Part shown: in pieces, positions 3,418 through 55,160 of the stretch
How the letters are laid out: every line of letters begins with the position of its first letter
How positions within the stretch are numbered: position 1 is the stretch's first letter
Assembly (NCBI RefSeq): GCF_056712565.1
Contig: NZ_CM160072.1
Reading direction: 5' to 3' (one strand)
DNA: 64,000 nucleotides
Translations under genes and position numbers: made by a program
Notes under the pieces: model-generated
The model's database searches: none
The model's input: only the letters and a program-made list of their open reading frames with translations
What the model was told of the DNA's origin: nothing

Positions 3418-3768
3418 TCACTTCAGTCGTTCACGGGCCGTCTTCGCCTTATGACACGGCCAGCACAGGCTCTGCAGATTGCAGTCTGCATCAGTGCCGC
3501 CATGCGCTTTAGGGATGATGTGGTCAACGGTTTTCGCCTCACGCACCACACCGACATGCAGGCACAACTGACACAGGCCTTTGTCACGCTTCAGCACGCG
3601 CGCGCGGATAACATCCCACTTCGAACCGTAGCCGCGCTGGTGACGGGATTGTCCTGGCTTGTATTGTTTCCAGCCTTCGCTTTTGTGGCTTTCACAATAG
3701 CCTGACGGATCAGTGGTGGTTTGGCGGCAGCCGCGAACGCGGCAGGCTTTTGGGGTTCGTGGGGGCAT
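3418..3768 (-). CDS. HNH endonuclease (terminase-associated)
   Basis: 116 aa with cysteine-rich zinc-finger pairs (CRVRGCR, CQLCLH, CWPCH) and DHIIPKAHGG HNH motif; canonical position upstream of terminase genes. Confidence 0.85.
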   Translation of the reverse strand: MPPRTPKACRVRGCRQTTTDPSGYCESHKSEGWKQYKPGQSRHQRGYGSKWDVIRARVLKRDKGLCQLCLHVGVVREAKTVDHIIPKAHGGTDADCNLQSLCWPCHKAKTARERLK

Positions 3769-3870
3769 TTAAAGTGGGATCTAACTCTAATAATTTAAAA
3801 AATTTAATTGGGTCTTGATATTAATCACATAGACTCAATGCTCTTTAGTTCTTACATAGGTGGTTGTATT

Positions 3871-4311
3871 ATGAGTATCCCCAGTTTAGATGTTCATAAA
3901 GTTGTTAAGTGCGCAGAGCATAAAAAGGCTTTAGATGCAATATCTCTCAAACTTAAGAATAACATTATTGACTCAAGCTCTGAATACGATTTTCTTGGCG
4001 ACACAATAATTTTCAATAAAGATAAAAAAAATAGGTTAACCCTCAAACTTTCAACATATGAACTAGAACTTATTTTCAAAGAAACACTGCTAGTCATTGA
4101 TGAAGCTCCTGTATTGAAGTTTGCTGCCATTGACCCAACCGATGAAAATAACAACGAGCTGATTGATTTATTTTTATCCAAAGGTGGATTTATTTATATT
4201 AGAGAATACAAATCCGAGCCACATTATGAGTATGGCGACACTTCTCTATTTTTACATATACTTGACGCTACTCTTAAAGAGCTTAAATCTGCAAACAAAA
4301 TATCCTATTAA
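3871..4311 (+). CDS. Hypothetical protein, AT-rich moron
   Basis: ORF 3808..4311; likely start ATG 3871 (MSIPSLDV...) preceded by AGGTGG. Very low GC versus flanking phage genes, opposite strand to the structural/lysis genes, no recognisable motif. Confidence 0.45.
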   Translation: MSIPSLDVHKVVKCAEHKKALDAISLKLKNNIIDSSSEYDFLGDTIIFNKDKKNRLTLKLSTYELELIFKETLLVIDEAPVLKFAAIDPTDENNNELIDLFLSKGGFIYIREYKSEPHYEYGDTSLFLHILDATLKELKSANKISY

Positions 4312-6614: not shown

Positions 6615-7367
6615 TTATCTCGTCACCTTTCTCAATTGTGTTTCAGCATATGCTTCTTCCTGCCAGCACTTTGTTACTAGTTTATCAATTACGTCTGCAT
6701 ATCCTTTGTACCACTGATAATCAGTCAGGTCTGGAACCAGCTTCTGGACATGACGTCGTGCCAGTGTAGTCGGTAAACGGCTAAACCGGTTTCCATTGCA
6801 ACGCCCACAAGTCTTATAAACAGGCGTGCCATGAAGCCGGGTTCTTTTTTCATCCAGGACAATACCTTTACCCTTACACCCTCTGCACGCCGTGCTGACT
6901 TCTCCCTTGCCATGACAATGCTGACACAGTTCCTTCACCCACTCTTCTTTGATAACGGATTCCCCGCTTCTGGAATGTTTCACCACTTCGCGCAATACAT
7001 TATGAAATCCAGTACCAGTACAATGCTCACAGCGAGCCTTACTTGCCGCAGACCTGGAATAATCAGCAAAGGCAAAATTCACAAGGTAAGGGATGATCTG
7101 TAACCGGGTTTCTTCACTCAATTTGTTCAATGTCGGGTTATCCAGTGCCATCGCGTAATTGAGCAGGCCTTCAATCGCAAACTGAGGATCCTGAACACCA
7201 ACTTTTGCCAGGAATAAGGCAAACCCAAGCGGTGCTTTCGACTGCACCATCCCCTGCGCAGCCATTACATCCGTAATTGTTAAACCACCCGAGCCTGTCG
7301 CCGATGCGTCATCGCTCAATTTTGGAGATTTTGGGGAGTAATATTTCGGTAAGGCTTCAAGGTTCAT
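6615..7367 (-). CDS. Late-gene antitermination protein Q-like
   Basis: Multiple CxxC zinc-binding pairs (CEHCTGTG, CQHCHGKG, CRGCKGKG, CGRCNGN); located immediately upstream of tR' and the lysis cassette. Start may be 7409 or internal ATG 7367. Confidence 0.6.
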   Translation of the reverse strand: MNLEALPKYYSPKSPKLSDDASATGSGGLTITDVMAAQGMVQSKAPLGFALFLAKVGVQDPQFAIEGLLNYAMALDNPTLNKLSEETRLQIIPYLVNFAFADYSRSAASKARCEHCTGTGFHNVLREVVKHSRSGESVIKEEWVKELCQHCHGKGEVSTACRGCKGKGIVLDEKRTRLHGTPVYKTCGRCNGNRFSRLPTTLARRHVQKLVPDLTDYQWYKGYADVIDKLVTKCWQEEAYAETQLRKVTR

Positions 7368-7380
7368 GCTCGTTCTCCAC

Positions 7381-8376
7381 TTACACCAGTACGCCAATTG
7401 CCAGCGCACGATCGATAAAACGAAATATCAGCTCCAGCTGGGAGCCATACATCTCTTCAAATGCCACGGTATCCGCATGCAGCTCGTCGTGATGCTTTCT
7501 GCACAAAGGCAACACAAAAAGGTCATGCGCTTTTGTACCCATTCCACCCTGTCCGTGGCCTATCAGGTGGTGGGGATCATCAGCGGGCTTTCCACAACAT
7601 GCACACGACTGTGTCTTAACCCAGCGCGTGTACTTTTCATTAACCCAGCGGCGACGTTTTGGGCGTAACATAAAAGACTCCGGCGACTCCGGATCCACTT
7701 TCAGCGCCAGCACCTTTTTCGCCTTATCCTGGATGATGCTGGTGGCAGGAACCGAAGGCACAAGGTCACTTTCCCGGGTGACAGACGGCACAACAGGCTT
7801 CGGTAATCTCAGTGCCTTACGGGCTGCACTTTCCGGTAAGGCATCCGCCAGATCATTACGAACCAGCCACCAGCACAGTTCCGGCATTGTCACAACGTGA
7901 CTGTCATCAAAACCGAGATCCCGACGCACAACAGACAACACCCAGCGGGCACAGTTATCCGTTGCCATTGATTCCAGCCGTTCCGTGAACTGATCGCGAA
8001 GCAGGTTATCGCAGTGCCAGCACAGACGGATTGCGCCCGGCGCGTGTCGCATTGTGGTCATGTTCTCGCTGTGCCATCCGGAATGAGGCCACTGACAGCC
8101 CTTTTCACGAAGTAACCAGCTTTCAAGACATTCCACACCCCCCGCACGACGAATAACTGCCTCATTGCGGAACACGGCCCGAATGGCAGGATCATCCGCC
8201 AGCGGTTGTGATGCCGCCGGAACGGCACCACTGGCAAAAGATGAATAACGTTCCGGCTCAGGCTCCAGCAGGACACGCCCCTGCATAAACAGGGGCATCA
8301 GCTCTGAACCGGGCCTGAACAATACGATCCCCATACGCGGGGCAATTTCAGGGGTCAGTAGTGCTCTCACGGTCAC
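7381..8376 (-). CDS. DUF968-family protein (YdfU-like) with C-terminal HNH-like motif
   Basis: C-terminal CACCGKPADDPHHLIGHGQGGMGTKAHDLFVLPLCRKHHDELH resembles the zinc-finger/HNH signature of DUF968 proteins of E. coli lambdoid prophages. Confidence 0.6.
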   Translation of the reverse strand: MTVRALLTPEIAPRMGIVLFRPGSELMPLFMQGRVLLEPEPERYSSFASGAVPAASQPLADDPAIRAVFRNEAVIRRAGGVECLESWLLREKGCQWPHSGWHSENMTTMRHAPGAIRLCWHCDNLLRDQFTERLESMATDNCARWVLSVVRRDLGFDDSHVVTMPELCWWLVRNDLADALPESAARKALRLPKPVVPSVTRESDLVPSVPATSIIQDKAKKVLALKVDPESPESFMLRPKRRRWVNEKYTRWVKTQSCACCGKPADDPHHLIGHGQGGMGTKAHDLFVLPLCRKHHDELHADTVAFEEMYGSQLELIFRFIDRALAIGVLV

Positions 8377-8377
8377 C

Positions 8378-9175
8378 TCAATGAACGGTATCGAGCAGCT
8401 TTAACAGCTCAGGGAATCGGGATTCGAAGAAATGCGGCTGCGTCTCGCGCGGATTTGCAGGACTGGTGATGTTCTTGCCGAACATGCAGCCTTTCGCCGT
8501 CAGCGACCAGAATTTTTTGATGTTGTTAATCGCTGTACGGCTGTATCGTTCGCGCTGTTCGACGATCCCCAGCTTCGCCATCTGGTGATATGCCTGATTA
8601 GCCGTAAGGCGGATACCATACTGTTTCAGCAGTGCACTCAGCGACAGTGTCGGGCGACTTGAGCCATCAGGCGCGTCAGCAGGAGCATCAATGGCATAGC
8701 GCGGTGCCAGATTCGGTAAGCCAACAGCCTCCTGAAGCTTCTGACAGGCTCCAAGCACTGATGAGTTAGACAGGTTTAATTCCCGGCGCATAAAGTCCAG
8801 CAGGATCACGCCAGCCTGCATCTTGTCAGCAGCCTGCCCGGATAATTTTTCCGGTGTGCTGGTTACCATATCGAAAGTACGGATCACCTTCAGATGGAAT
8901 GACGGGCTTATCCACATTGCATAGGCATACACCAGTTCTTTGCAGACATACGTCCCCTGGTTATTTCCGCCACGAATAACGTTAACTGGCTCTATATTGA
9001 CCGAGTTGCAAATCTGCAACTCGCTTATTAAACGTTCAGTTTGCTCATTGCGGAGCCAGAATGCAGGCTTATGCTTATCCAGAGAACCGGCAGCCCTGTG
9101 CAGATCGTTCAGGCTGTAACGCCCATAAGCATCACGACGAACTTCAATACCATCAATAACCATCAGATTATTCAT
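8378..9175 (-). CDS. KilA-N domain protein
   Basis: N-terminus MNNLMVIDGIEVRRDAYGRYSLNDLHRAAGS...KPAFWLRNEQTERL is the KilA-N DNA-binding fold common in prophage early regions. Confidence 0.7.
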   Translation of the reverse strand: MNNLMVIDGIEVRRDAYGRYSLNDLHRAAGSLDKHKPAFWLRNEQTERLISELQICNSVNIEPVNVIRGGNNQGTYVCKELVYAYAMWISPSFHLKVIRTFDMVTSTPEKLSGQAADKMQAGVILLDFMRRELNLSNSSVLGACQKLQEAVGLPNLAPRYAIDAPADAPDGSSRPTLSLSALLKQYGIRLTANQAYHQMAKLGIVEQRERYSRTAINNIKKFWSLTAKGCMFGKNITSPANPRETQPHFFESRFPELLKLLDTVH

Positions 9176-9194
9176 ACTTCGTTTCTCCTCTTAA

Positions 9195-9584
9195 TCAGGC
9201 AGCTGCACCCGCCGTTTTCTCGTACTTACTGATAGTGATCTCGACCTTCCCTTCCGGGATAACCGGTCCCCACTCCACCAGCATTCTTTTCACCTGACTG
9301 TCGTCTTCCCACACACCCGCGTGGGTCAGGGCGTCAAACAGCGCCTTGTTATAGTTGTCCAGATCGCGGATCCGGTTATCCGGAGGAAACAACACGATCT
9401 CCACTGAAGCAGGTGCCGACGTTGGTTTTGGCAGACGACGTAACTGCTCAACTATTGCTGCACACGCCGCGCTCTGGAATTTGCGCCCCGCCGCGCTTAT
9501 CAGGCTCTTACCAGCAAACGCCCCTTTGTTGGGGTGTCGCCAGTACGTGTTCACGCTGGGCGGAAACGGCAGAATCAGCTTCAT
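9195..9584 (-). CDS. rusA: RusA-family Holliday junction resolvase
   Basis: 129 aa, MKLILPFPPSVNTYWRH...DLDNYNKALFDALTHAGVWEDDSQV matches the RusA signature. Confidence 0.85.
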   Translation of the reverse strand: MKLILPFPPSVNTYWRHPNKGAFAGKSLISAAGRKFQSAACAAIVEQLRRLPKPTSAPASVEIVLFPPDNRIRDLDNYNKALFDALTHAGVWEDDSQVKRMLVEWGPVIPEGKVEITISKYEKTAGAAA

Positions 9585-9907
9585 ACTTTCAGGCCCCTCT
9601 CATGTAACCAGTGGGCTGCACGCAGCCTGGCGTTTTCCTTACCGGCAAGCAGTGAGCGGATAATCCCGACCGCCTCGCTGTCGTCGTCCTTCACCGCGGT
9701 ATGAAGAGTGATACCCCGGGCCACGCCACGCTTTATCGTGATGACGCCTTTTTTCTCCAGTGCTCGAAGATGCTCCACCGCTGCATTCACTGAACGGTAT
9801 CCCAGCATGGTTGCCACCTCCTGATTGGTTGGCGGGAAGCCACGTTCTTTCTGATAAGAAATCAGCATATCCAGCACCTGCTGCTGGCATTGAGTTAACG
9901 TCGTCAT
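9581..9907 (-). CDS. LexA-type DNA-binding domain protein (no S24 peptidase domain)
   Basis: 108 aa resembling the LexA N-terminal winged-helix domain (LTQCQQQVLDMLISYQKERGFPPTNQEVATMLGYRSVNAAVEHLRALEKKGVI) but ending before any autocleavage domain. Confidence 0.5.
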   Translation of the reverse strand: MTTLTQCQQQVLDMLISYQKERGFPPTNQEVATMLGYRSVNAAVEHLRALEKKGVITIKRGVARGITLHTAVKDDDSEAVGIIRSLLAGKENARLRAAHWLHERGLKV

Positions 9908-10590
9908 GCCGCCATCTCCCTGAGCAGTTTTTCCGCCTGCTGGCGAACCTGCGCCAGAAACGCCTCACCACATGCCTCAAGTTCATCGCGCCCGATGTAG
10001 CTGATTGCCGGTCCCTTCCAGGTCTTGTCAAAAACAGCAATAGCACCAGCGAAGAAAGCTCCTGTCGGCACCTGCTTCTCGTCTTTCGGGATAAACCAGA
10101 CAGGCAGTTCAAAACCAATACGCCCGCGAATAAAAGCAATATGATCTGCATCTTCCGGCCACCACACTTCGCTGGTGGCAGCTTTGATCAGGAAAACATA
10201 GCGCCCGCCTTTATCACGCATGGCACTGGCATGCTTCATGATGTAACGCATGCCGGTGATGTATTGCCCCTCATGCTGACTGGCGCGGCTGTATGGGGGA
10301 TTACCAAAGGCAGCACCTTTAAGCTCCGCAAGACGTTCTGACCAGTCATGCGCCAGCGCATTGTCTTCCGCCGTGTAATACGCGGCACATTTGGCGTTAC
10401 CACCGTCGGTGAACAGATCCAGAACAAACGGGCCAAACAGGGTGTTAATTCCCCAGAAAATGTTGTCCGGCGTGCGCCACTGATCGCCCACTTCCTTCAG
10501 TTCATGGGCTGGTTTGTTCCGCAGCTCCACCAGCACCTGGCAATATTTATTACTCATTAAGCCCCCACGTAATTCCCTGACAGATACCAC
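9904..10590 (-). CDS. Phage DNA N6-adenine methyltransferase (Dam-like)
   Basis: 228 aa with the amino-methyltransferase catalytic motif NPPY (GAAFGNPPYS). Confidence 0.8.
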   Translation of the reverse strand: MVSVRELRGGLMSNKYCQVLVELRNKPAHELKEVGDQWRTPDNIFWGINTLFGPFVLDLFTDGGNAKCAAYYTAEDNALAHDWSERLAELKGAAFGNPPYSRASQHEGQYITGMRYIMKHASAMRDKGGRYVFLIKAATSEVWWPEDADHIAFIRGRIGFELPVWFIPKDEKQVPTGAFFAGAIAVFDKTWKGPAISYIGRDELEACGEAFLAQVRQQAEKLLREMAA

Positions 10591-11051
10591 TCTTCACCCG
10601 ATGCAGCGCGCTTGCTGCTTTTCCGTAAGCACCGCTCACGACGCGCCAGAAAATTGTTTCGTTCTGGCTGGGAGTGGCTTTCACGGAATGCCGCCATCCA
10701 CACGGTTGCAGCACGACGGTATAAACCCCTGGACTCCAGTTCTTCAGCCTGGCGGGTCAGGCACAAAATCACCCGTGGATCGTTAGTGCCGACATAGAAA
10801 TTGCGCACAGGTCTGGTTTCTCGAACTGGTTGTGGTTCCGGTTCCTGCGCTCTCTCAGTCAGGCGCGGGAAATGTCTGCGTGTATCTCCTTCACAACGGT
10901 GAGCCACACGCCCACTCTGACGTAACTTGCTTGCTGACTGCAGAACGCGCTGTCGTGAGTAACCTGCAAAAGCATCCGCAATGTCACCGGAAGTACACCC
11001 CGGATGGGCTTCAATGAATTTCTGAACGTCATTTAACAGACTCATGATCAC
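10557..11051 (-). CDS. Hypothetical prophage protein, possibly PerC-like regulator
   Basis: 164 aa; central region (LTRQAEELESRGLYRRAATVWMAAF) resembles PerC-family activators; weak assignment. Confidence 0.4.
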   Translation of the reverse strand: MIMSLLNDVQKFIEAHPGCTSGDIADAFAGYSRQRVLQSASKLRQSGRVAHRCEGDTRRHFPRLTERAQEPEPQPVRETRPVRNFYVGTNDPRVILCLTRQAEELESRGLYRRAATVWMAAFRESHSQPERNNFLARRERCLRKSSKRAASGEEWYLSGNYVGA

Positions 11052-11989
11052 CCCCTGAATCCTGCCGGGATCTGGCTGTAGTCCACGTTGTCGTAACTGG
11101 CTTTGAAGTACGGGTCCTCGCGTTTTTCGGTGTACGTACTTACGGACGGCGATAAGCGCAGGGAAAGCTCATCCCATTTTTCCCGCAGCTTCGACGGGCT
11201 GAGCACGTTACGGCACCAGAACGGATCGCGGCTGACGCGGCTGTACATCTCGCAGATTTGTTTGTGAGTACGACCATCCTGCACACACATCAGGCGAATT
11301 TCGTTTGCCCAGGCTGTCCAGTTCGGTTCTTTGGGACGAACCACCTCGCCGTCACATTCGGCAGCCTGCTCGTACAGGGCGATGATTTTTTTCCAGAGCC
11401 ACTGTGCGCAGGTCAAATCATCCTGCGTTCCCCACTGGCGCTTTTTAGGGCTGAATACAACAGCATCAGGATGGCGAGTTAAAAACTCCTGTTCAGCCGT
11501 CTGCGTGTCCGGTTGCGAAGCGTCCGGACGAGAAGTTTTTTTATCTGACGGATCATGTTTTGATTTTACTGACGGATCCCCGCCAGATTCTGACGGGTGA
11601 AAACCCGCTTTTTTGCCAGATTTCGACGCATCAAATTTTGACGGGGCAGATTTTGATGCGTCAGATTTTGACGGGTCAGAATCTGACAGTTGAGAAAATG
11701 CCGCTGCCTGAAGCTTCGCAACGTTAAGCTGATAAACATTCGACGCATTGCGGTTACCCTGGCGACGCGCCTTACGCGTTAACCAGCCTTCTGCTTCCAG
11801 CCGTGCGATAGCCGTTCTGACGGTACTCATCCCCGCGCCAATCTGGCGGGCAATGGTTTCAATTGATGGCCAGCACACACCTTCGTCATTACTGAAATCA
11901 GCCAGGCGGGCCATAATTGCCACGCTGGATAACTTCATGCCTGACGCAGCGCAACCATCCCATACATAGCCGGTTAATTTAGTGCTCAT
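11048..11989 (-). CDS. Phage replication initiation protein (HTH N-terminal domain, repeat-containing linker)
   Basis: 313 aa; N-terminal winged-helix region (CWPSIETIARQIGAGMSTVRTAIARLEAEGWL) typical of lambdoid O-like initiators; internal repeat peptide DASKSAPSKFDASKSGKK encoded by tandem DNA repeats. Confidence 0.65.
   Translation of the reverse strand: MSTKLTGYVWDGCAASGMKLSSVAIMARLADFSNDEGVCWPSIETIARQIGAGMSTVRTAIARLEAEGWLTRKARRQGNRNASNVYQLNVAKLQAAAFSQLSDSDPSKSDASKSAPSKFDASKSGKKAGFHPSESGGDPSVKSKHDPSDKKTSRPDASQPDTQTAEQEFLTRHPDAVVFSPKKRQWGTQDDLTCAQWLWKKIIALYEQAAECDGEVVRPKEPNWTAWANEIRLMCVQDGRTHKQICEMYSRVSRDPFWCRNVLSPSKLREKWDELSLRLSPSVSTYTEKREDPYFKASYDNVDYSQIPAGFRG
11541..11692. repeat. Iteron-like tandem repeats inside the replication gene (putative origin)
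   Basis: About eight imperfect ~15-bp direct repeats with core (c)AGATTTTGACGG, e.g. agattttgatgcgtc / agattttgacgggtc / agaatctgacagttg contiguous at 11648..11692. Confidence 0.5.
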
Positions 11990-12333
11990 GACCGACCTCT
12001 ATTTCCCTGAATTTACGACGAAACTGTTCGAGCGGACTGAAGCATTCATGCTCATAGCCTTCGCGGAGGTAGATAACCCGTTGTGTTTCCGGTTCCCAAC
12101 GAATGACTCTGACGGGCACTCCGTAGTGATCTTTGAACCAGCGGTTAACTTGTCGCAAAGGACTGTCTCCTTCTGCCGGTTGAAATCACCCACAGCCCAC
12201 TCAGCAAAGCTGTGGGTTACAATTTCCCTGTCACCTGGTACATTTACTGCATAGCAATACTCCACCTTCGCTTTTCCACCCGGTACAGGAAGCGCAATCA
12301 GTTGCGAGCGACGGTAGTGTGTTGTTAAACTGT

Positions 12334-12897
12334 TCATGCGTTAGTTTCTCCACAGTCACGACACGCCACGGCGCCCGGAGCTGCACACTCGCGGGCGTCA
12401 CTACTTTCTGAAACGCAAAAGATTTTGTAGACCAGTGCTGCATGCTCCTGCAGCTTCGAAATTGAGAGGTACAGCTCATCGTTAATTGCTGTCTTCTCAT
12501 GCGGTTCCACTACACCGTCTTCAATTGCTGAACGAATCTGTTTTGAATAACTGCCGATCTGTTCAATGACCTCCAGCAGGCGTTGGTTGATATCGGCGTT
12601 GTCCACATCCTCGACGTCAGGAAGAGACACAAAGACGCCATTTGCAGACTGCGCCACAGCATCAGCAATGAAGTGAGTGCCACCAGCACGCTGTAAAACC
12701 ATTGCCCATCCCAGCGGGAAAATCTGATCGCCATCTGCACGAAGGCGGTTGAATAAAGCGTTTTCTGTTACATCGAGCCAGTCAGCCGCTTCAGCGTAAC
12801 CACCCGGCAACGCCGCGATCGTTTTTCTGGCAGCTTTCACGTACCACTCAGGCTGTTTTTCTATTTTCCAGTGATGCTTACCCACGATTAGCCTCAT
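12334..12897 (-). CDS. Prophage regulatory protein, CII-like / YdaT-like
   Basis: 187 aa immediately downstream of the cro-like gene in the rightward early operon; family call is weak. Confidence 0.4.
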
Positions 12898-12928
12898 CGT
12901 TCTGTGGTTAAAAATTGAAAGTGTTCTG

Positions 12929-13129
12929 CTAATCTTTCGGATAGATATCCGGTCTTAAGTCAGATTTCGTAATTGCACCTGACGTGCATTGCTCAAGTTT
13001 TTTAGCCAGCACAAAACTGGCTTTTTTATAGCCATTGAAAACCAGCCGTAAGTAGCCAGGTGTTGAGCCAACTTTTCCGGCCAACTCGCCCTGCTGTTCT
13101 TTGGTTAAAGAGTCCCAATACGCTTTCAT
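12929..13129 (-). CDS. Cro-like HTH regulator (YdaS-like)
   Basis: 66-aa protein transcribed divergently from the CI-type repressor with a palindrome-containing intergenic region between them. Confidence 0.6.
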   Translation of the reverse strand: MKAYWDSLTKEQQGELAGKVGSTPGYLRLVFNGYKKASFVLAKKLEQCTSGAITKSDLRPDIYPKD

Positions 13130-13219
13130 ACAATGTGTACCTCAGGTGTACATATTACATGATTGAAATGAACCTTCAAGATACTTGTACCTTAACGGTA
13201 CAAGGGTTTTAATTTCGTT
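13130..13219. promoter_or_regulatory. Immunity-region operator/promoter between cro-like and cI-like genes
   Basis: Two palindromes sharing a GTAC core: TGTAC-N7-GTACA (13136..13152) and CTTGTACC-N5-GGTACAAG (13184..13204), in a 90-bp AT-rich divergent intergenic region. Confidence 0.55.
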
Positions 13220-13894
13220 ATGAAAACAATCCATGACATCCGGCGGTCTAACGCCAGAAAACTGAGAGATGGTGTTGGCGGGAATTCTTCCTTTGCCACT
13301 ATGATTGATCGCGAGCCAACCCAGACCAGCAGGTTTATGGGAGATGGTGCTACTAAAAATATCGGTGACAGCATGGCACGACACATCGAAAAATGTTTCG
13401 ACCTGCCTGTCGGATGGCTCGATCAAGAACACCAGACAACGAACATCACAAAAAAACCTGATGTTTCAATCACTAATAAACAAATCACATTAGTCCCTGT
13501 CATATCATGGGTACAGGCCGGAGCATGGAAAGAAGTTGGATATTCTGAGGTTGATTTGAGCACAGCAGAAACGTATCCCTGCCCTGTACCCTGTGGGGAA
13601 ATGACTTATATCTTGCGGGTGATAGGTGATTCAATGATTGATGAGTACCGCCCGGGAGACATGATTTTTGTCGATCCTGAAGTACCTGCCTGCCACGGTG
13701 ACGACGTTATTGCATTGATGCACGATACAGGTGAAACCACCTTCAAAAGGTTGATAGAAGATGGGACACAGCGTTATCTCAAAGCGTTAAACCCAAACTG
13801 GCCTGAGCCTTACATTAAGATCAACGGTAATTGCTCTATAATTGGTACTGTGATTTTCTCAGGAAAACCAAGAAGATACAAAATCAAAGCCTAA
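13220..13894 (+). CDS. CI-type repressor with S24 (LexA-like) autopeptidase domain
   Basis: 224 aa; N-terminal HTH region and C-terminal S24 domain with catalytic serine context VIGDSM. Confidence 0.85.
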   Translation: MKTIHDIRRSNARKLRDGVGGNSSFATMIDREPTQTSRFMGDGATKNIGDSMARHIEKCFDLPVGWLDQEHQTTNITKKPDVSITNKQITLVPVISWVQAGAWKEVGYSEVDLSTAETYPCPVPCGEMTYILRVIGDSMIDEYRPGDMIFVDPEVPACHGDDVIALMHDTGETTFKRLIEDGTQRYLKALNPNWPEPYIKINGNCSIIGTVIFSGKPRRYKIKA

Positions 13895-13907
13895 TCAATG
13901 TTTATGA

Positions 13908-13929
13908 ACCTGCTTCGGCAGGTTTTTTT
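13908..13929 (+). terminator. Rho-independent terminator after the repressor gene
   Basis: Stem ACCTGC-TTCG-GCAGGT followed by TTTTTTT. Confidence 0.6.
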
Positions 13930-14046
13930 ATACTTGACAATGTACCTTTGGGATACATAATGTACCCAAGAGAAACAACAAACAGGCAGGACGCCCACGA
14001 AGTAGCCGCCTGGGGCATATGAAGTCCAGGATGATTCGTTAGCAAC

Positions 14047-14075
14047 AAAAAAGCGCCCTATAGGACGCTTCGCTC
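14047..14075 (-). terminator. Terminator hairpin downstream of 14097..14609
   Basis: Minus-strand stem AAGCG-N10-CGCTT followed by a U-rich tract. Confidence 0.4.
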
Positions 14076-14096
14076 TTTAACAATCTGGATGACTTA

Positions 14097-14609
14097 TTAC
14101 TCAGATTTGAACTTTGGTTCTGGCAAAAGAGGAGGAGTTGAGTCCTCGAATCGTAGCCAGTGCTCCCAGATATCGTGGGATTGTAATTCCAGAAGACCAA
14201 TTTGACGTGATGCAACTGCAGTGCCAGCTATAGTTCCTCCTGCATAATCAACCTGGACGGACTTTGACGCTTTCTCAATTAATTCTGTCCAAGCTTCACT
14301 TTCCGCGTTAAAAGAAGCAGTTAATTCCTGCAGACGCTGTGGATCATCCTTGTTGTCTTGTTTCAAACGATTCAGGGCGGCCACCGAATACTTATTCTTA
14401 ACCCAACTAACCTGAGCTAACTGAACTCTCTGACAAGCGTCCATATCAGTAGTTGTTTCCTGAGGCATATCAAAGCAGGAAATAAAAAAAGTCTCAACAC
14501 CATCATTTAGACTACTGCTCGGCTGGTTCAAAGCATCAGAAGCATTGGATGCTATCGGTATTATCAGTGCTACCGACAGAATCAAACGTTTAACATAAAT
14601 CGCTCCCAT
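14097..14609 (-). CDS. Secreted/periplasmic protein with cleavable signal peptide (possible DUF1311/LprI-like)
   Basis: N-terminal KRLILSVALIIPIASNA-SD looks like a Sec signal peptide with an AxA-type site; two cysteines in the mature part; low GC; convergent with the repressor gene. Confidence 0.45.
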   Translation of the reverse strand: MGAIYVKRLILSVALIIPIASNASDALNQPSSSLNDGVETFFISCFDMPQETTTDMDACQRVQLAQVSWVKNKYSVAALNRLKQDNKDDPQRLQELTASFNAESEAWTELIEKASKSVQVDYAGGTIAGTAVASRQIGLLELQSHDIWEHWLRFEDSTPPLLPEPKFKSE

Positions 14610-14896
14610 TTAATTATCCCCTCTAAGAACAGAGTCATCCAGATTAGCCGAATCCTTGTTGTTGGGGAATAACCAGGCCCACCTCGCCTGATGTGGCTAA
14701 AAGCAGGCACATAACAGCTAAGTATTTTCAACCAGAGAGAATCCTTAGCGTTGTGGTGAATGCGGCTCAGCGCACGCGGGTTAAGGTTGAGGCTGACAGT
14801 CGACCTTCTGTGGATACCCACCCGCCTGGTGTGCAACCTTCGCCAGGCACCGGGAGGCACCCGGCACCACAACTTTATGCTGTGTGTAGTCCTGGC

Positions 14897-14940
14897 GGTA
14901 CCAGCTTGTACCCTTGCTTCCGGCTGGTACCGCTCTTTTT
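14897..14940 (+). terminator. Terminator-like hairpin in the noncoding region upstream of the yfdP-like gene
   Basis: Perfect 9-bp stem GGTACCAGC / GCTGGTACC (14897..14905 and 14923..14931) followed by CTCTTTTT; the stem also carries GTAC motifs like the immunity-region operators. Confidence 0.4.
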
Positions 14941-15077
14941 ACAAAACAGAGAAGAGCATCACCGGACGACGGGCTCATAACCCAATCCACCCGGGCGGCT
15001 GCCACCGCAGGTGTTCTTCTCTGTTTTGTGGAGAAACCAACCGACCTTGCAGGGTCGATATGATGAGGAGCAGCAAA

Positions 15078-15440
15078 ATGGCTAGCGAACGCAGTACCAA
15101 CGTGCAGGAATTTATCGGGGAGCTGGACGGCGGCGTATTTGAAACCAAAATCGGCGCAGTTCTCAGTGAAGTCGCTTCCGGTGTGATGAACACGAAAACC
15201 AAAGGTAAGGTCTCGCTCAACCTGGAAATCGAACCGTTTGATGAGAACCGTGTGAAAATAAAACACAAACTCTCATATGTTCGTCCGACTAACCGCGGGA
15301 AAATTTCCGAAGAAGACACCACCGAAACGCCGATGTATGTCAATCGCGGTGGTCGCCTGACTATTCTGCAGGAAGACCAGGGACAATTACTGACTCTTGC
15401 CGGTGAACCTGACGGAAAACTCCGCGCAGCAGGTCATTAA
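15078..15440 (+). CDS. YfdP-like prophage protein
   Basis: ~120 aa starting MASERSTNVQEF..., with GAGGAG RBS 7 nt upstream; directly precedes YfdQ- and YfdR-like genes as in the E. coli CPS-53 prophage. The longer ORF from 14760 is an unlikely extension. Confidence 0.5.
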   Translation: MASERSTNVQEFIGELDGGVFETKIGAVLSEVASGVMNTKTKGKVSLNLEIEPFDENRVKIKHKLSYVRPTNRGKISEEDTTETPMYVNRGGRLTILQEDQGQLLTLAGEPDGKLRAAGH

Positions 15441-15505
15441 TATCGTTCTTAATTAACTGATTATTTATCTCATCACTGAATATCTTTATATAGTGAGGAC
15501 TTATT

Positions 15506-16330
15506 ATGTCTCAGAACTTAGACGCAACCGCAATTAATCAAATCCATGCCCTTATTTCTGCTCAGGGTGTTAATGAAATTATCAGTAAGATTGGTGCCGA
15601 CGCAGTGGCATTACCTGAAAATTTCCGCATTCATGATCTGGAAAAATTTAATTTAAATCGCTTCCGTTTCCGTGGTGCGCTTTCCACTGCCAGCATCGAT
15701 GACTTTACCCGTTATTCTAAAGATCTTGCGGATGAAGGCACCCGCTGCTTTATCGATGCCGATAATATGCGTGCCGTCAGTGTGCTTAACCTGGGTACTA
15801 TTGATGAGCCTGGTCACGCAGATAACACCGCCACTCTCAAACTGAAAAAGACAGCACCGTTCTCTGCTCTGTTGTCTGTTAACGGCGAGCGTAACTCCCA
15901 GAAGTCACTGGCAGAATGGATTGAAGACTGGGCCGACTACCTTGTGGGCTTTGATGCTAATGGTGATGCCATTCAGGCAACAAAAGCGGCTGCGGCAGTC
16001 CGTAAAATCACGATTGAAGCAAACCAGACCGCTGATTTTGAAGACAATGACTTCAGCGGCAAACGCTCCCTGATGGAGTCTGTCGAAGCGAAGACCAAAG
16101 ATATTATGCCAGTGGCATTTGAATTTAAATGCGTTCCGTTTGAAGGCCTGAAAGAACGTCCGTTTAAATTACGCCTCAGCATTATCACTGGCGATCGTCC
16201 TGTACTGGTTCTGCGCATTATTCAGCTGGAAGCAGTGCAGGAAGAAATGGCTAACGAATTTCGTGATCTGCTTGTTGAGAAATTCAAGGACAGCAAAGTA
16301 GAAACCTTTATTGGTACTTTTACCGCCTGA
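15506..16330 (+). CDS. YfdQ-like protein (DUF2303)
   Basis: 274 aa, same length and gene neighbourhood as E. coli YfdQ. Confidence 0.65.
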
Positions 16331-16457
16331 TTTCATTACTGCAAATGCCCCTGCGGGGGCATTTATGGAAACGTAATTGACTCAATAATCGCCGGATGGT
16401 GAGGGCTTTCTTTTACCAGAATTCAGCGCGGTGCAGCGCATATACGTGGAGAACAAA

Positions 16458-16982
16458 ATGTCATTTATTAAAACTTTTTCCGGGAAGCATTTTTATTATG
16501 ACAGGATAAATAAAGACGACATCGTTATTAACGATATCGCGGTTTCTCTTTCAAATATCTGTCGCTTTGCAGGACATCTTTCACATTTCTACAGCGTCGC
16601 CCAACATGCGGTGCTTTGCAGCCAACTGGTACCGCAGGAATTTGCTTTTGAAGCGTTAATGCATGATGCAACAGAAGCGTATTGCCAGGACATCCCGGCG
16701 CCACTGAAACGCCTTCTTCCTGACTATAAACGGATGGAAGAAAAAATAGACGCCGTAATCCGTGAGAAATACGGGTTACCCCCGGTTATGAGTACGCCCG
16801 TGAAATATGCCGATCTCATCATGCTGGCAACCGAACGCCGCGATCTCGGGCTTGATGATGGCTCTTTCTGGCCCGTACTGGAAGGTATCCCGGCAACAGA
16901 GATGTTCAAAGTTATTCCACTGTCGCCAGGCCATACCTATGGGATGTTTATGGAACGCTTTAAAGAGTTAACTGAGTCGTAA
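16458..16982 (+). CDS. HD-domain 5'-deoxynucleotidase, YfdR-like
   Basis: HD motif (ALMHDATEAYCQDIP) and histidine-containing N-terminal region; start MSFIKTFSGKHFYYDR preceded by GGAG. Confidence 0.7.
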   Translation: MSFIKTFSGKHFYYDRINKDDIVINDIAVSLSNICRFAGHLSHFYSVAQHAVLCSQLVPQEFAFEALMHDATEAYCQDIPAPLKRLLPDYKRMEEKIDAVIREKYGLPPVMSTPVKYADLIMLATERRDLGLDDGSFWPVLEGIPATEMFKVIPLSPGHTYGMFMERFKELTES

Positions 16983-17090
16983 AAATCAGCACGTACGAAT
17001 TCAAACTCTGCCATAAAAGAACATATAAGTAATTTATTAACATATAGATATAGGTTATATTACAAATTGAAAAATTATTGGAGAGCAACA

Positions 17091-17957
17091 ATGAATCAAA
17101 ATCCATTCTCATTCTATGACTTTCTTGGATATTTAATACCAGGTGGTTTTTTTATCCTATTAATGTATTTCTGTGGTTTGACATTCGATCTAGATATTGT
17201 TATTGACTTAAGTGAATTGCTCAGAGGTCAAAGTCAAATCTTTGGCATTTTGAACTACGCTTCAATAGTTATTATATCTTATATAGCTGGACATTTTATT
17301 TCTATCACGTCAGCATTTTTTATCGAAAAATACATGAATAAAGAATTAGGATATCCTTCCAAATATCTATTTAAAAAATTGATAGATACCTCAGAAAGCA
17401 TTTGTAGCCCATCATGCGATGAGAGAAGCGCTGATAAAAAAACAAAAATAAAGAATCGCATAATCAAATGCGTATTATGTCCAATAATACTATGGGATTT
17501 TATAACACAAAAACTATGTTATTCTCAATCTCTACCATTTCATTTAGCTAATACAACATGGTTAATGATCAAAGAAGGTTATGAGAAAAAGTTCATAACA
17601 AATCGCCAATTATTACAAGATAAAAACGGACTTGATGATGATCTCTTCAGATTGGCATATCATTATGTTTATGAGTTTTCAAAACAACATCAAACAAAAA
17701 TTCAAAACTATGTTGCATTATATGGTTTTTGCAGAAACATATGTTTAATCTTTATAATTTCATTTTGGGTATCAGTTCCAACCTTTATTTATCGATTATG
17801 TACTCATAGTGATTATCTTTATAGTTTACTTTCAATAATGCTTAGCTTTTTCTTCGTCTATGTTTTCTATGTTGGTTTTGTTAAATTTTATAGAAGATAT
17901 ACTTTAGAAGTATTAATGGCATTTGCTGTACTTCAAAGTAACGACACTATTCGTTAA
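17091..17957 (+). CDS. Integral membrane protein, very low GC (candidate exclusion/abortive-infection moron)
   Basis: ~288 aa from ATG 17091 (RBS GGAGAG); two predicted TM helices at each end with a ~130-aa soluble central region; strongly AT-rich codon usage. Confidence 0.5.
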   Translation: MNQNPFSFYDFLGYLIPGGFFILLMYFCGLTFDLDIVIDLSELLRGQSQIFGILNYASIVIISYIAGHFISITSAFFIEKYMNKELGYPSKYLFKKLIDTSESICSPSCDERSADKKTKIKNRIIKCVLCPIILWDFITQKLCYSQSLPFHLANTTWLMIKEGYEKKFITNRQLLQDKNGLDDDLFRLAYHYVYEFSKQHQTKIQNYVALYGFCRNICLIFIISFWVSVPTFIYRLCTHSDYLYSLLSIMLSFFFVYVFYVGFVKFYRRYTLEVLMAFAVLQSNDTIR

Positions 17958-17998
17958 TAATGTTGCTCCCGTGTGCAGACGGGATAATGGAGAAACGT

Positions 17999-18205
17999 AT
18001 GCTGAACCTCGATTGTGTTCCTATCTCAACTTATTGCAAAGAAACTGGCGAAACTCCTGAAGCAATAAACAAACGTGTACAGCGCGGTGTTTGGCGTGAA
18101 GGTGTTCAGGTTTTAAAGGTTGAAGGCGTTAAGGAGAGGTGGATTGATCTTAGTGAGGTTGCAAAATGGGCCAGACAAAACTGCTCAAACTACCGCGCGG
18201 CGTAA
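17999..18205 (+). CDS. Excisionase-like protein
   Basis: Small basic protein directly upstream of and overlapping the integrase gene; GGAG RBS 8 nt before ATG 17999 (alternative start 17987). Confidence 0.55.
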   Translation: MLNLDCVPISTYCKETGETPEAINKRVQRGVWREGVQVLKVEGVKERWIDLSEVAKWARQNCSNYRAA

Positions 18206-19338
18206 CAATCAGGAAACACCACCAGGGAGAAACGATCAATATAACTTTCACCTACAAAGGAGTTAGATGTCGTGAGCCGCTTTCCAATCTGGAAGTAACA
18301 CCAAAGAACATTAAATACGCCGAGCGTACACTCGGCGAAATCCATAATAAGATCGAAAGGGGAACATTCATTTATGCAGAATATTTTCCCCGTTCTGCTC
18401 GTTTGAAAATTTTTGGTAATGCTGCTGCAAGCAAAACGGTAAAGATGTACCTGGACGAATATCTTGAAATCTGCGAAACAAGAAAACTTTCACCCTCTAC
18501 GATTGGTGGCTATAAAAAATGCCGTAGTGCGTTAGCCTCACTTCACATTTGCCCTGCAAGTGAATTAACACCAGCAACCCTGAAAGCGTGGATTCAAAGC
18601 CAGAAAACAACCTTAAAAACCATTCGCAACCAGTTATCTTTCCTACGGTCAGCACTTGATGAAGCCGTGACCGATGGGGTACTTCAAATTAACCCCGTAT
18701 CGTTAGTAACAGCTTCGCGCTACCAAAGTGATAAGTCAGAAGCAGAAAGCAGCTATGTGGTTGATCCGCTATCACCAGCAGAAGTTGATGCATTACTAGC
18801 AGCAGCCGGAAACAAACAATGGGAAAATCTGTTCCGGTTCGCCATACATACAGGCCTGCGTAGTTCTGAATTATGTGCCCTACGATGGCATGATATCGAC
18901 TTTGTTGGAAAAACAGCCCATGTTCAGAGCGCAAGTGTTGTCGGAGTTATCAAAGGAACAAAGACAAAAGCCGGTACCCGTAAAGTTGAACTGACTGAAG
19001 AAGCAATGTTGGCGTTGATAAACCAGAAGCCATTTACATTCATGAAGGATGCTACTGTCTTTGAAGATCCAAAGACCAATAAACCCTGGGCAAGTGCTGA
19101 TGCAATTAGGAAAAAAGCATGGGTGCCAACATTGCGAAAAGCAGGTATTCGTTACAGAAACCCATATCAAACCAGGCATACATTCGCCACCAGCCATATC
19201 AGCCGGGGAGCAAACCTGTTTTGGCTTGCGGCTCAAATGGGCCATAAAGGGCCTGAAATGTTATTCAGGCACTATGGACAATACTTGAAAGAGTATGATG
19301 GGAGGGCAAGTATCAAGGATAAAAAGGCTTTATTTTAA
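18166..19338 (+). CDS. Tyrosine integrase (phage integrase family)
   Basis: 390 aa with catalytic-domain signatures (LRSSELCALRWHDID; HTFATSHISRGANLFWLAAQMGHKGPEMLFRHYGQY), reading toward the att remnant. Confidence 0.9.
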   Translation: MGQTKLLKLPRGVTIRKHHQGETINITFTYKGVRCREPLSNLEVTPKNIKYAERTLGEIHNKIERGTFIYAEYFPRSARLKIFGNAAASKTVKMYLDEYLEICETRKLSPSTIGGYKKCRSALASLHICPASELTPATLKAWIQSQKTTLKTIRNQLSFLRSALDEAVTDGVLQINPVSLVTASRYQSDKSEAESSYVVDPLSPAEVDALLAAAGNKQWENLFRFAIHTGLRSSELCALRWHDIDFVGKTAHVQSASVVGVIKGTKTKAGTRKVELTEEAMLALINQKPFTFMKDATVFEDPKTNKPWASADAIRKKAWVPTLRKAGIRYRNPYQTRHTFATSHISRGANLFWLAAQMGHKGPEMLFRHYGQYLKEYDGRASIKDKKALF

Positions 19339-19947
19339 GTCATTATGCCAATCGTCTACTGTTTGAAACCAAATTTTTAACCTTTGCATAAAGGTACGAT
19401 CCTTTTTGGGAGGGTGGTACCTTTGAAAAGAAGTATGTAACGCTTCGATAACTCCCATACAAGCATCAATTACTTCTTGTGCTTTAACCGGGCGATCGGC
19501 ATCTGAAAGCTTGTGAGCGACCTCACAATCCAGAGTTGCTTTCTCTAGTACAGATGAGAACACCTCGTCAGGTATATACAGTCCTCTGCTTTCCAAAATG
19601 CAAATCAGTTTGGAAACTTGTTGAGCTTTAGCCAAGATAGTTAACAAGTATGAAACAGAAGCCTTTGTTCTATCCTTTTGCAACCTTAACAATCGATGCT
19701 TTGATGCTCTAATTTTAGGTTGAGTTGTCTGACTGAGCCAATAGTTAGAAGAAATATCAGAAATTTCAATAACTAACTTTGAAATAGCATCAATAATTGA
19801 TTTCGATTCAGAACGTGTCGCCAGTTTTACAGAATTATTGTACGCAACTCGCCATCCAATGAAAACTAAGCAGACGCTAACTACTGTGATACACCACGAA
19901 TACTGTCCTATTTGTGCTACTAATGACATTGGTTCCGTACTGATCAA
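19330..19947 (-). CDS. Membrane-anchored protein, third gene of the integrase-proximal cassette
   Basis: 205 aa; single N-terminal TM helix (YSWCITVVSVCLVFIGW) then a ~170-aa soluble domain with no recognisable motif; 3' end overlaps the integrase 3' end; 10-bp gap to the upstream gene. Confidence 0.5.
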   Translation of the reverse strand: MISTEPMSLVAQIGQYSWCITVVSVCLVFIGWRVAYNNSVKLATRSESKSIIDAISKLVIEISDISSNYWLSQTTQPKIRASKHRLLRLQKDRTKASVSYLLTILAKAQQVSKLICILESRGLYIPDEVFSSVLEKATLDCEVAHKLSDADRPVKAQEVIDACMGVIEALHTSFQRYHPPKKDRTFMQRLKIWFQTVDDWHNDLK

Positions 19948-19957
19948 CTATCGCCTC

Positions 19958-20284
19958 TTATACTCTTTCTGGTTGTGCTAAATCAATAAATTTATCAATC
20001 TGTTCTTTGTAGAACGGAACATCACTTTTTATAATCAAACGTGCTTTAACGTTGGCTTTAGGTATCCCTTCCTTACGGATGAGACCTCCAAACGCCTCTT
20101 CTAAGAAAGAGGAACCAACACCCAGTGCTATACCGCGAAAATCAACCACAATCTCCTGTTCAGTACCCTTCAGCGCAGGCACCAAAAACTCTCTACGAAA
20201 TCTTTCCGCACTGTGTGGGCTATCCGTTGTGTAACGTCCGAAAGGTGTTCTGGAGAACTCCTTCGCTATGACGATATTTCTCAT
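19958..20284 (-). CDS. Small STAS-like protein (DUF4325-like), second gene of cassette
   Basis: 108 aa; segment EIVVDFRGIALGVGSSFLEEAFGGL resembles the STAS-like DUF4325 proteins that I recall pairing with GHKL ATPases; 4-bp gap to the upstream ATPase gene. Confidence 0.45.
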   Translation of the reverse strand: MRNIVIAKEFSRTPFGRYTTDSPHSAERFRREFLVPALKGTEQEIVVDFRGIALGVGSSFLEEAFGGLIRKEGIPKANVKARLIIKSDVPFYKEQIDKFIDLAQPERV

Positions 20285-20288
20285 AAAA

Positions 20289-21200
20289 TCATCTCCTGGG
20301 AACCAGCGACCATTGTAGTAAAGTACCCGGTATGTACTCAGCTAGCTTCTCACATCGAGGACTACTGTCATTAGAATTATAGCTATAACGAGCCCTTCCT
20401 ATTAGTATCAGAAGTGTCTCATTATCCTCACAACCTGCCCCAATAGGTCTCTTGATATCTTCAGAGCCATTTCCCCGTCCGGAACCAACAAAGCGGGATT
20501 CCCCTACTAACATAGCTCTTTCCACAGAAGATACTTCGTTTTGAATGCTATGACCATCACCATTAGGCACGAAACTTCTATAAATCCCCAATCCAAGGTC
20601 ACAAACGATAAAAACGACTTTATTTTCATCACGATTGAACCAAGCGCACTGCCACCATCGTTTACCTTTGAGAAGCTGAATATCTGACTCGAACCCCTCA
20701 TCTTCATACGCATGATGAGAAACATTGAGCAAAGCTTCACTAATCGCTGTCAGCAGTAAGCCTAACTGTTCATTATTAAGCAGAGCACTTTTCTGCAGCA
20801 TGAGTACTGTTTCAACAATATGCTCGTAAGGTTCGACAGCTGACTGAAAGTATCGTTCCTCCCTCGTAAGTGCATTCAGTTTCTCTTCTGTGCCAGCAAG
20901 CAAAGCACGAGCAAGTCCAGTACCAACGATCCATCTATGCCCAGATGGGTTATCATCCTTTTTAGGCCATTTAAAACGTATAAAATTAGGGTCCCGGGTT
21001 AAAAATTGAGCTCTATTTACTATGGCAAAGAACAGTACCGATGCCGCAGCTGAGGCAAATTTTACCTTGGACAAATCAACTATAACTCGACCTTTATTTT
21101 TTACTCCAATCGATTCAATCGAGTTGATGAAGTTCAATGTCCCAGCCCTAGAATCATCTGAGTAAATGCAAAATTTGCTTGGGGGTACCAGTATGGTCAT
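20289..21200 (-). CDS. GHKL (Bergerat-fold, histidine-kinase-like) ATPase, first gene of cassette
   Basis: 303 aa; N-box-like EALLNVSHHAY, G1 box VCDLGLGI (DxGxG), G2-like GSGRGNG; ~130-aa N-terminal extension of unknown fold; AT-rich promoter-like region upstream (21201..21340). Confidence 0.6.
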   Translation of the reverse strand: MTILVPPSKFCIYSDDSRAGTLNFINSIESIGVKNKGRVIVDLSKVKFASAAASVLFFAIVNRAQFLTRDPNFIRFKWPKKDDNPSGHRWIVGTGLARALLAGTEEKLNALTREERYFQSAVEPYEHIVETVLMLQKSALLNNEQLGLLLTAISEALLNVSHHAYEDEGFESDIQLLKGKRWWQCAWFNRDENKVVFIVCDLGLGIYRSFVPNGDGHSIQNEVSSVERAMLVGESRFVGSGRGNGSEDIKRPIGAGCEDNETLLILIGRARYSYNSNDSSPRCEKLAEYIPGTLLQWSLVPRR

Positions 21201-54799: not shown

Positions 54800-54876
54800 T
54801 GGTGCATCCGGGAGGATTCGAACCTCCGACCGCTCGGTTCGTAGCCGAGTACTCTATCCAGCTGAGCTACGGATGC
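54800..54876 (-). tRNA. tRNA-Arg (anticodon ACG)
   Basis: 77-nt reverse complement gives GCATCCGTAGCTCAGCTGGATAGAGTACTCGGCTACGAACCGAGCGGTCGGAGGTTCGAATCCTCCCGGATGCACCA. Confidence 0.9.
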
Positions 54877-54939
54877 ATCGGGAAAATTTATTTTACTACT
54901 GATATTGATATCGCTACTAAAGCCATATCAAGTAAGAGA

Positions 54940-55016: not shown

Positions 55017-55080
55017 ATCGGGAAACTTACTTTACTGCAGATTTTTTGATACCGCCACTAAAGCCGTATCAAGTAAGAGA

Positions 55081-55157: not shown

Positions 55158-55160
55158 AAA

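Follow-up and report, generated by a model that had tools for sequence, protein, structure and literature searches.

Csx27 is a four-transmembrane (TM) protein of type VI-B CRISPR systems and has been reported to dampen or down-regulate interference by Cas13b, which is the one experimental datum for its family. SieA has three TM helices in 162-164 amino acids (aa) and carries the motif FnRYPnEAnnFNK, and its best conserved motif is predicted to face the cytoplasm. SNIPE (PD-lambda-1), with one TM helix and DUF4041 and GIY-YIG domains, is an inner-membrane-anchored nuclease that cuts phage DNA during injection. Additionally, the interval between gpQ and gpA is a hotspot of anti-phage systems, where old and tin are located in P2 (Rousset et al. 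2022, PMC9122126). System #3 of Table S5B in that study, 'DUF4760 + 4TM', was recorded in 1102 of 18,150 loci, with 1 TM segment in protein 1 and 4 in protein 2 (PMC9122126). In this paper, a gene at 17091..17957 (+) in a 64,000-nucleotide (nt) stretch of contig NZ_CM160072.1 (RefSeq assembly GCF_056712565.1), hereafter the window, is examined against this background. The gene encodes a 288-aa four-pass inner-membrane protein, listed in RefSeq as a 'hypothetical protein' (WP_001075212.1), that falls in phrog_12528, a family with a distant likeness to Csx27.

Within an ssrA-integrated lambdoid prophage, the gene makes up a single-gene cassette that moves horizontally, and its product is most aptly viewed as an enlarged, free-standing variant of the Csx27-like four-TM proteins. 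As to function, the favored candidate is a Csx27-like membrane protein, acting on its own, by which other phages are excluded or aborted; this reading has about an even chance of being correct. This protective reading is based on the occurrence in accessory and defence slots of phages, the autonomous mobility of the gene, its patchy distribution at low guanine-cytosine (GC) content, and the kinship with Csx27. The original prediction of a superinfection-exclusion or abortive-infection factor is therefore backed circumstantially, by the phage slots, an integron-like cassette and the Csx27 kinship. Its more specific suggestion of a SieA/SieB-type protein does not hold, since no such similarity was found in PHROGs, Pfam (including the SieB family) or PADLOC, and no Abi match in the latter two, a direct pairwise comparison with P22 SieA not being part of these searches. 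The family has been catalogued in passing (phrog_12528; system #3 of Table S5B, PMC9122126), and no functional study of it was found in the literature.

Probable relationship to Csx27 and predicted membrane topology

The Csx27 hidden Markov model (HMM) of PADLOC matched the window protein over aa 6-268 with an E-value (E) of 1.4e-5, and a homologue from P2-like phages with E 1.1e-5. Seven of 10 further diverse family members also matched, giving 9 of 12 overall (E 8.5e-6 to 1.1e-2), and the matches always entered at model position 4. A genuine Csx27 was sought by means of the type VI-B direct repeat of B. zoohelcum and then with Cas13b fragments, which led to positions 3511-4167 of the metagenomic contig L017. 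The B. zoohelcum CRISPR locus itself was discarded as a source because the stretch is too short to contain csx27. The L017 protein scores 203 bits on NCBIfam NF040557, for which the cut-off is 65 bits. In a BLASTP comparison, aa 172-225 of the window protein, covering the motif before TM3, were aligned with aa 106-157 of this Csx27 at 31% identity (E 4e-4), and the N-terminal motif was aligned collinearly (aa 7-19 with 5-17). The family HMM gave the same Csx27 23.3 bits in two collinear segments, TM1-TM2 and the pre-TM3 motif towards TM4, compared to a maximum of 6.4 bits in 500 composition-preserving shuffles. The cassette family thus combines the two marks of the Csx27-like superfamily (sensu Makarova et al. 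2019), four TM segments and profile similarity across both TM pairs. Judged by these sequence comparisons, distant homology to Csx27 is probable. On contig L017 (3511-7836), the genuine csx27 (219 aa) lies directly upstream of a cas13b split into open reading frames (ORFs) of 547 and 611 aa, a split that could be a frameshift or an assembly error.

Membership in Csx27 proper can be excluded, because the window protein reaches 14.9 bits on NF040557 (E 0.02, aa 5-43 only) against the 65-bit cut-off, because no cas13b or CRISPR array stands beside the gene, whose neighbours are yfdR, an excisionase and an integrase, and because the central domain is about 70 aa larger. Proteins of the Csx27 family were reportedly predicted by Makarova et al. 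2019, as known from secondary citations, to be single-stranded DNA (ssDNA) membrane channels, and the family is also said in secondary sources to be associated with natural-transformation genes. By analogy, the cassette protein could be a nucleic-acid channel or a regulator of DNA transport that affects uptake or export, with no dedicated anti-phage effector role. The reciprocal remote similarity to Csx27, the reported ssDNA-channel prediction and the transformation association would all fit. However, no competence genes neighbour any of the inspected loci, and the channel idea is itself only a prediction. Under ordinary conditions, E. coli lacks natural competence. We regard such a transport function as quite unlikely.

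A Kyte-Doolittle scan of the window protein revealed four hydrophobic segments, at about aa 12-34, 51-78, 210-236 and 244-264, with a 131-aa segment between the two pairs. This agrees with the original prediction of two TM helices at each end around a soluble domain of about 130 aa. The middle segment holds 20 lysines and arginines; therefore, the central domain is predicted to be cytoplasmic and both termini to lie inside (N-in/C-in). The C-terminal tail is likewise basic. A fifth, weaker hydrophobic stretch at aa 124-142, around the invariant P131, could represent a re-entrant element associated with the membrane. The AlphaFold2 model, made from an alignment of 88 sequences, is all-alpha, with a predicted local distance difference test score (pLDDT) of 89 and a predicted template modelling score (pTM) of 0.88.

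The distribution of conserved residues follows this topology. The N-terminal signature NPFSFYDFLGYLIPG (aa 4-18; 17100..17144, +), with F6, D10, Y14 and G18 invariant, leads into TM1 and is common to the cassette family and Csx27, in which it takes the form SLYELLSFVLPGA. TM1 (aa 12-34), an unconserved periplasmic loop (aa 35-50) and TM2 (aa 51-78) are encoded at 17124..17324 (+); Y64 and G67 of TM2 are invariant and H68 is near-invariant. The predicted cytoplasmic domain (aa 79-209; 17325..17717, +) carries membrane-proximal motifs, namely E79, GYPSKYL (aa 87-93) and D184..R187..H191-Y..E195..H200..K203..QNYVA, and a poorly conserved middle (aa 96-180) that contains the hydrophobic LLP(131)I element. 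TM3 (aa 210-236; LYGFxR, with R215 invariant), a very short unconserved periplasmic turn and TM4 (aa 244-264) are encoded at 17718..17882 (+). The cytoplasmic C-terminal motif KFYRRYTLEVLMA (K265 invariant; E273 and M276 near-invariant), the tail and the stop codon occupy 17883..17957 (+). At the family level, the N-terminal half is marked by QNPFSLYDFLGYxIPG at the N-terminus and the start of TM1, SYxxGHxLS...IExY at the end of TM2, GYPSKYL and the conserved LLP(131)I. The C-terminal half is marked by DxFRxxYHYxxE...HxxKxQNYVALYGFxR leading into TM3 and by KFYRRFTLExLMA after TM4. Among the 88 family sequences, with a mean identity of 32%, 11 alignment columns are invariant. Conservation is 0.52-0.78 in the N-terminal, post-TM2, pre-TM3 and post-TM4 segments, 0.19-0.31 in the central insert, and 0.14 and 0.09 in the two periplasmic loops. 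[quoted passage not shown]

Under the protective reading, this N-in/C-in four-pass protein would present its conserved residues at the cytoplasmic face of the membrane around a variable cytoplasmic insert. It would be expressed in the lysogen as an accessory ('moron') function and would protect the carrier cell from other phages at the inner membrane. Exclusion could take the form of interference with genome entry at the inner membrane, by analogy with P22 SieA. Alternatively, in abortive infection, the membrane would be permeabilised or depolarised once the cytoplasmic domain senses an infection, and the variable insert may act as the infection sensor. It can also be imagined that the protein is a single-gene anti-phage effector and the free-living ancestor or sibling of Csx27, in which a conserved cytoplasm-facing site (D10, H68, E79, H191, H200, R215 and K265) would gate a channel or block entry while the insert recognises the phage. 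This more specific proposal is tentative and possible rather than probable.

Searches against known families leave the protein nearly isolated. Pfam gave no match even at E<=10 (the 88 family members gave scattered noise only), PHROGs at E<=1 returned the unannotated phrog_12528 alone, and a PDB sequence search with the family profile gave nothing at E<=10. Foldseek against AFDB50 found uncharacterised family members only, and the automatic names 'RDD' and 'DUF975' on a few of these matches were dismissed, as they are not backed by Pfam scans; against the viral BFVD, nothing was found at E<=0.001. No model of PADLOC-DB v2, including Kiwa KwaA, Zorya, RexB, Rst TM and PD-lambda-1/SNIPE, matched at E<=1 beyond the weak Csx27 and tm_4 models. 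The remote homology search proposed with the original prediction thus yielded a distant Csx27 relationship only, and no specific fold match. The invariant and near-invariant D10, H68, E79, H191, E195, H200, K203, N206, R215, K265 and E273 are typical of active sites, and they could belong to a small membrane-embedded envelope-modifying enzyme that causes lysogenic conversion and a change in receptor availability, comparable to gtr and oac. The neighbourhood of the integration module is a classical site of conversion genes, gtr and oac standing beside int-att in other phages, and the cassette gene has such a position. However, no enzyme was matched in Pfam, NCBIfam or PDB sequences or by a specific fold, the protein has only four TM helices, its conserved residues are cytoplasmic while the periplasmic loops are short and unconserved, and Csx27, the closest detectable relative, is not known as an enzyme. 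GtrA, glycosyltransferase and acyltransferase_3 were not matched in Pfam or NCBIfam, the latter giving the weak Csx27 match only. An enzyme of this kind is distinctly improbable. Homology to a non-defence membrane protein such as an O-antigen modifier, against which the original prediction had been set, was not seen in Pfam or NCBIfam, so the exclusion or abortive hypothesis stays alive.

Cassette boundaries and prophage setting

The gene begins with ATG at 17091 and ends with its stop codon at 17957. A ribosome-binding site (RBS), GGAGAG, lies at 17080-17085, with 5 nt between it and the ATG. Initiation at a TTG further upstream (17067) is improbable, as the N-terminus conserved across the family begins with M-x-QNPFS. 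The GC content is 28.4% in the gene and 25.9% in the 108-nt upstream spacer, compared to 48% in the remaining prophage within the window and 50% in the whole window; the very low GC relative to the neighbours and the separate AT-rich upstream region had both been correctly described in the original prediction. A GC content so far under the host level, together with an annotation as hypothetical only, might point to a mis-called ORF or to a non-functional AT-rich remnant. The results given here refute that reading, which retains next to no probability. The ratio of nonsynonymous to synonymous substitution rates (dN/dS) is 0.17-0.24 against homologues of 78-85% identity, and no internal stops occur in diverged copies. 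The ORF is not a product of chance, since this ratio, the invariant columns and the confident AlphaFold2 model all contradict it. Therefore, the cassette gene is genuine and is under purifying selection with dN/dS of about 0.2.

The borders of the cassette can be read from a sister prophage in strain W150, to which homology ends at 16977 and restarts at 17968, just before the same excisionase. The AT-rich interval 16978..17967 is a recombination unit and one alternative filling of a variable slot, since sister prophages share the flanks and carry other genes between them. The W150 slot holds two small unrelated genes instead of the cassette, and the slot of an O157:H7 prophage holds a methyltransferase, an exonuclease remnant and a PrtN-family gene. 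A dGTPase is present in the yfdR-to-int interval of a sister prophage. The left edge, with the AT-rich (26% GC) spacer and the RBS, extends over 16978..17090 (+), and the right edge over 17958..17967 (+), the W150 homology being back at 17968. The left flank of the slot is formed by the conserved backbone gene yfdR (16458..16982, +), which encodes an HD-domain 5'-deoxynucleotidase. Downstream, an excisionase gene (17999..18205, +; phrog_2917, E 7.7e-44) begins 41 nt after the cassette gene and is followed by a tyrosine integrase gene (18166..19338, +; phrog_1, E 1.9e-63), which bears out the position just upstream of xis-int that had been proposed.

The mobility of the cassette is also visible in mosaic relatives from IMG/VR. 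In prophages L032-L036, YfdQ and YfdR are 98-100% identical to those of the window, the cassette protein is 78% identical, and the downstream region differs. In prophages L029-L031, the xis-int module is kept (89-92%) and yfdQ and yfdR are lacking. Divergence of the cassette gene is therefore uncoupled from that of its flanks. Moreover, the GC content of the family gene is below that of the flanks in 20 of 20 loci.

The prophage is of the lambdoid type, with HK97-type head genes, a switch of cI-like ymfK and cro-like ymfT, and an early-left string yfdP-yfdQ-yfdR. The window is 100% identical to the chromosome of E. coli UTI89 and to other strains of phylogroup B2 that are extraintestinal pathogenic (ExPEC) or avian pathogenic (APEC) E. 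coli, and the cassette was found in 204 of 5426 complete E. coli genomes. In B2 strains without the prophage, ssrA, the gene of transfer-messenger RNA (tmRNA), directly abuts the sequence that starts at about 21341, upstream of glaH. For this reason, the prophage is placed at the 3' end of ssrA with its right end near 21341. No tmRNA was found within the window by ARAGORN; the intact ssrA must therefore lie at the other prophage end, outside the window.

Several further genes of the window were recorded. Between the integrase and the prophage end (19330-21200, -), three co-oriented genes encode proteins of 303 aa (weak HATPase_c_2, E 1.2e-4), 108 aa (STAS-like) and 205 aa (without Pfam match). 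Diverged versions of the three (51%, 70% and 42% aa identity) stand behind the same integrase in prophages L022 and L024, and the cluster has no PADLOC match. It looks like a variable cargo module between int and the attachment site, possibly an accessory or defence system of the partner-switching type. Between the cI-like repressor and the early-left genes, another typical moron position, lies the gene (14097-14609, -) of a 170-aa protein (phrog_7681) that begins with a signal-like sequence and also has no PADLOC match. Three tRNA-Arg(ACG) genes and one tRNA-Ser(GCT) gene at 54800-55253 (-) are ordinary chromosomal content unrelated to the cassette.

Distribution of the family and possible time of expression

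A phmmer search of 1.84 billion representatives at E<=1e-3 gave 659 family clusters at 50% identity, most of them of 270-300 aa and aligned end to end. The family is spread over Proteobacteria, Bacteroidota and Fusobacteriota; named sources include Enterobacterales, Vibrio, Pseudomonas, Thioalkalivibrio, Luteimonas, Pseudodesulfovibrio and Magnetospirillum, as well as many Flavobacteriia and Fusobacterium. Of 61 IMG/VR loci, 35 have an integrase on the same strand whose start lies no more than 2.5 kb downstream, usually 211-284 nt away, a gap just large enough for an excisionase gene. Searched for by tblastn with the window integrase, at least five of the integrase types beside family genes go undetected. 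Even cassette proteins of only 48% identity occupy the xis-int position, as seen in Klebsiella- and Enterobacter-type prophages and also in Klebsiella phage P7641.

A second niche is provided by P2-like phages, in which a 280-aa homologue of 42-48% identity stands between the portal gene gpQ and the ParM and gpA genes, preceded by a 165-aa DUF4760 protein with one TM segment. Protein 2 of Rousset system #3 is a full-length family member nearly identical to the homologue P0125, which shares 44-48% identity with the window protein. The DUF4760 partner has no PADLOC match, and neither have the genes next to the cassette in the window. At IMG/VR locus L066, the family gene follows a NinB gene and is near a 566-aa Abi-alpha-like gene.

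The family also exists outside phages. In a 3.8-Mb assembly (L008), homologue P0365 (8001-8867) is one unit in an array of small same-strand ORFs and is flanked at 7956-7983 and 8869-8896 by copies of an attC-like repeat of roughly 28-100 nt ending in GGCGTTA. The array (7000-16800) includes NADAR, acetyltransferase, RraB, TfoX_C and other ORFs with attC-like repeats between them. From this arrangement, it looks like a sedentary chromosomal integron; no intI or other integron integrase was found within the 16.8 kb of L008 examined. The window copy itself lies outside any integron. Solitary homologues occur between unrelated operons (L005, L009) and among small hypothetical and toxin-antitoxin genes (L006, L007). 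Since homologues stand singly in an integron-like array or alone on chromosomes, the cassette protein evidently needs neither a fixed partner nor a phage in order to function.

Several observations weigh against the protective reading. The hhalign comparison of the family profile with the single L017 Csx27 sequence gave E 1.1e-4 and a probability of only 57%, and dampening of Cas13b, the function reported for Csx27, does not show a defensive effector role. No phenotype was found in the literature for any family member, and nothing relevant was found on the accession or on DUF4760. The P2 version of the family and its DUF4760 partner are missing among the cloned-system sequences in the supplements of Rousset et al. 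(PMC9122126), and no activity of that system is reported. Hotspots carry non-defence cargo too, such as partition systems, toxins and DinI, and several chromosomal homologues lie amid ordinary metabolic genes without defence neighbours. Finally, the cassette gene lies within the same-strand early-left string yfdR-gene-xis-int, with gaps of 108 and 41 nt, a site scan gave no terminator match between yfdR, the cassette gene, xis and int, and no promoter above the scan threshold was seen in the 108-nt spacer. Because of this arrangement, the gene may be expressed when the phage grows lytically and not in the lysogen, and lysogenic expression, as in the original prediction, is an assumption. No dedicated sigma-70 promoter could be shown in the spacer, where the scan gave nothing above threshold; by eye, a weak, sub-threshold sigma-70-like pair, TTATTA (17034) and TATATT (17061) separated by 16 nt, can be discerned. 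The terminator scan flagged a weak hairpin inside the ORF at 17457-17472.

The last group of observations favors a serious rival, in which the cassette is an early-lytic gene for the development of the phage itself, expressed with xis and int from the early-left promoter. Its possible roles would be a change in membrane potential or transport, the timing of lysis, or the exclusion of competitors during induction only. In addition to the shared strand with yfdP-yfdQ-yfdR and xis-int and the short gaps lacking terminator and promoter matches, the synteny with xis-int is preserved across several integrase types. In L029-type phages, the AT-rich spacer is lacking, the cassette gene abuts the upstream ORF, and homology starts at 17078. 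On the other hand, homologues outside phages form an integron-like single-gene cassette or solitary chromosomal genes in Luteimonas, Algibacter and others, and the copy in Klebsiella phage P7641 has its own upstream gap of 500 nt. An early-lytic role is, on the whole, unlikely.

Significance and comparison with known systems

If the defence or exclusion function is true, the cassette would be among the commonest uncharacterised cargoes of phage hotspots. Its family provides the third most frequent cassette of the E. coli P2 hotspot, and about 4% of complete E. coli genomes contain a copy even when only the lambdoid form is counted. The function would also be relevant to the prediction of phage-therapy host range for ExPEC strains such as UTI89, S88 and APEC O1. 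Because the cassette works as a single gene and has a detectable relative in Csx27, it provides a simple entry to the function of Csx27-family four-TM proteins, so far only guessed at. If the protein is indeed an ancestor or sibling of Csx27, its mechanism would reveal the role of Csx27 in type VI-B CRISPR systems. The cassette protein is thus a strong and cheap candidate for experiment.

[quoted passage not shown] P22 SieA and HK97 gp15 are likewise prophage-encoded multi-pass inner-membrane proteins, which act in superinfection exclusion; PHROGs and Pfam gave no sequence similarity to either. In contrast to SieA, the cassette protein has 288 aa and four TM segments, and the SieA motif was not seen in it by eye. 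PDC-M48A, a PADLOC candidate with a Lactamase_B partner, is a short four-TM protein with a similar N-terminal motif, Y-N-I-F-x-x-L-F-PG-A, and its HMM is weakly matched by some family members and by Csx27. As a close relative it was rejected, with 0.3 bits from the family HMM, no better than shuffles, and an hhalign probability of 15%; the resemblance of these sequences is at most at the superfamily level. System #34 of Table S5B, 'Lactamase_B + 4 TM' with 107 occurrences (PMC9122126), corresponds to PADLOC PDC-M48. Its 162-aa 4-TM protein matches PDC-M48A with E 9.5e-51, and the N-terminal motif recalls those of Csx27 and the cassette family. Nothing useful on PDC-M48 was found in the literature.

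In Rousset system #3 (PMC9122126), protein 2 is a family member, P0125 and L003:6001-6843 being 42-48% identical to the window protein over the full length, and in both cases the gene is accessory cargo of a phage. However, the window has no DUF4760 partner, which tblastn found only in 10 P2-like loci, and the window copy lies in a lambdoid prophage between yfdR and xis rather than between gpQ and gpA. Features are also shared with Csx27, the accessory protein of type VI-B1 systems (NF040557; PADLOC PDLC01605, tm_4). The cassette protein is about 70 aa longer than Csx27, owing to its larger central domain, and stands alone in a prophage. Both proteins have four TM segments, and in each a cytoplasmic insert separates TM2 from TM3. 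Both carry the N-terminal pattern S-x-Y-(D/E)-x-L-x-(Y/F)-x-x-PG-(A/G) from residue 4-7, and both carry the pre-TM3 pattern D-x-F-x-x-x-Y-x-Y ... N-(Y/F)-x-x-L-(Y/F)-x-F-R-(N/T).

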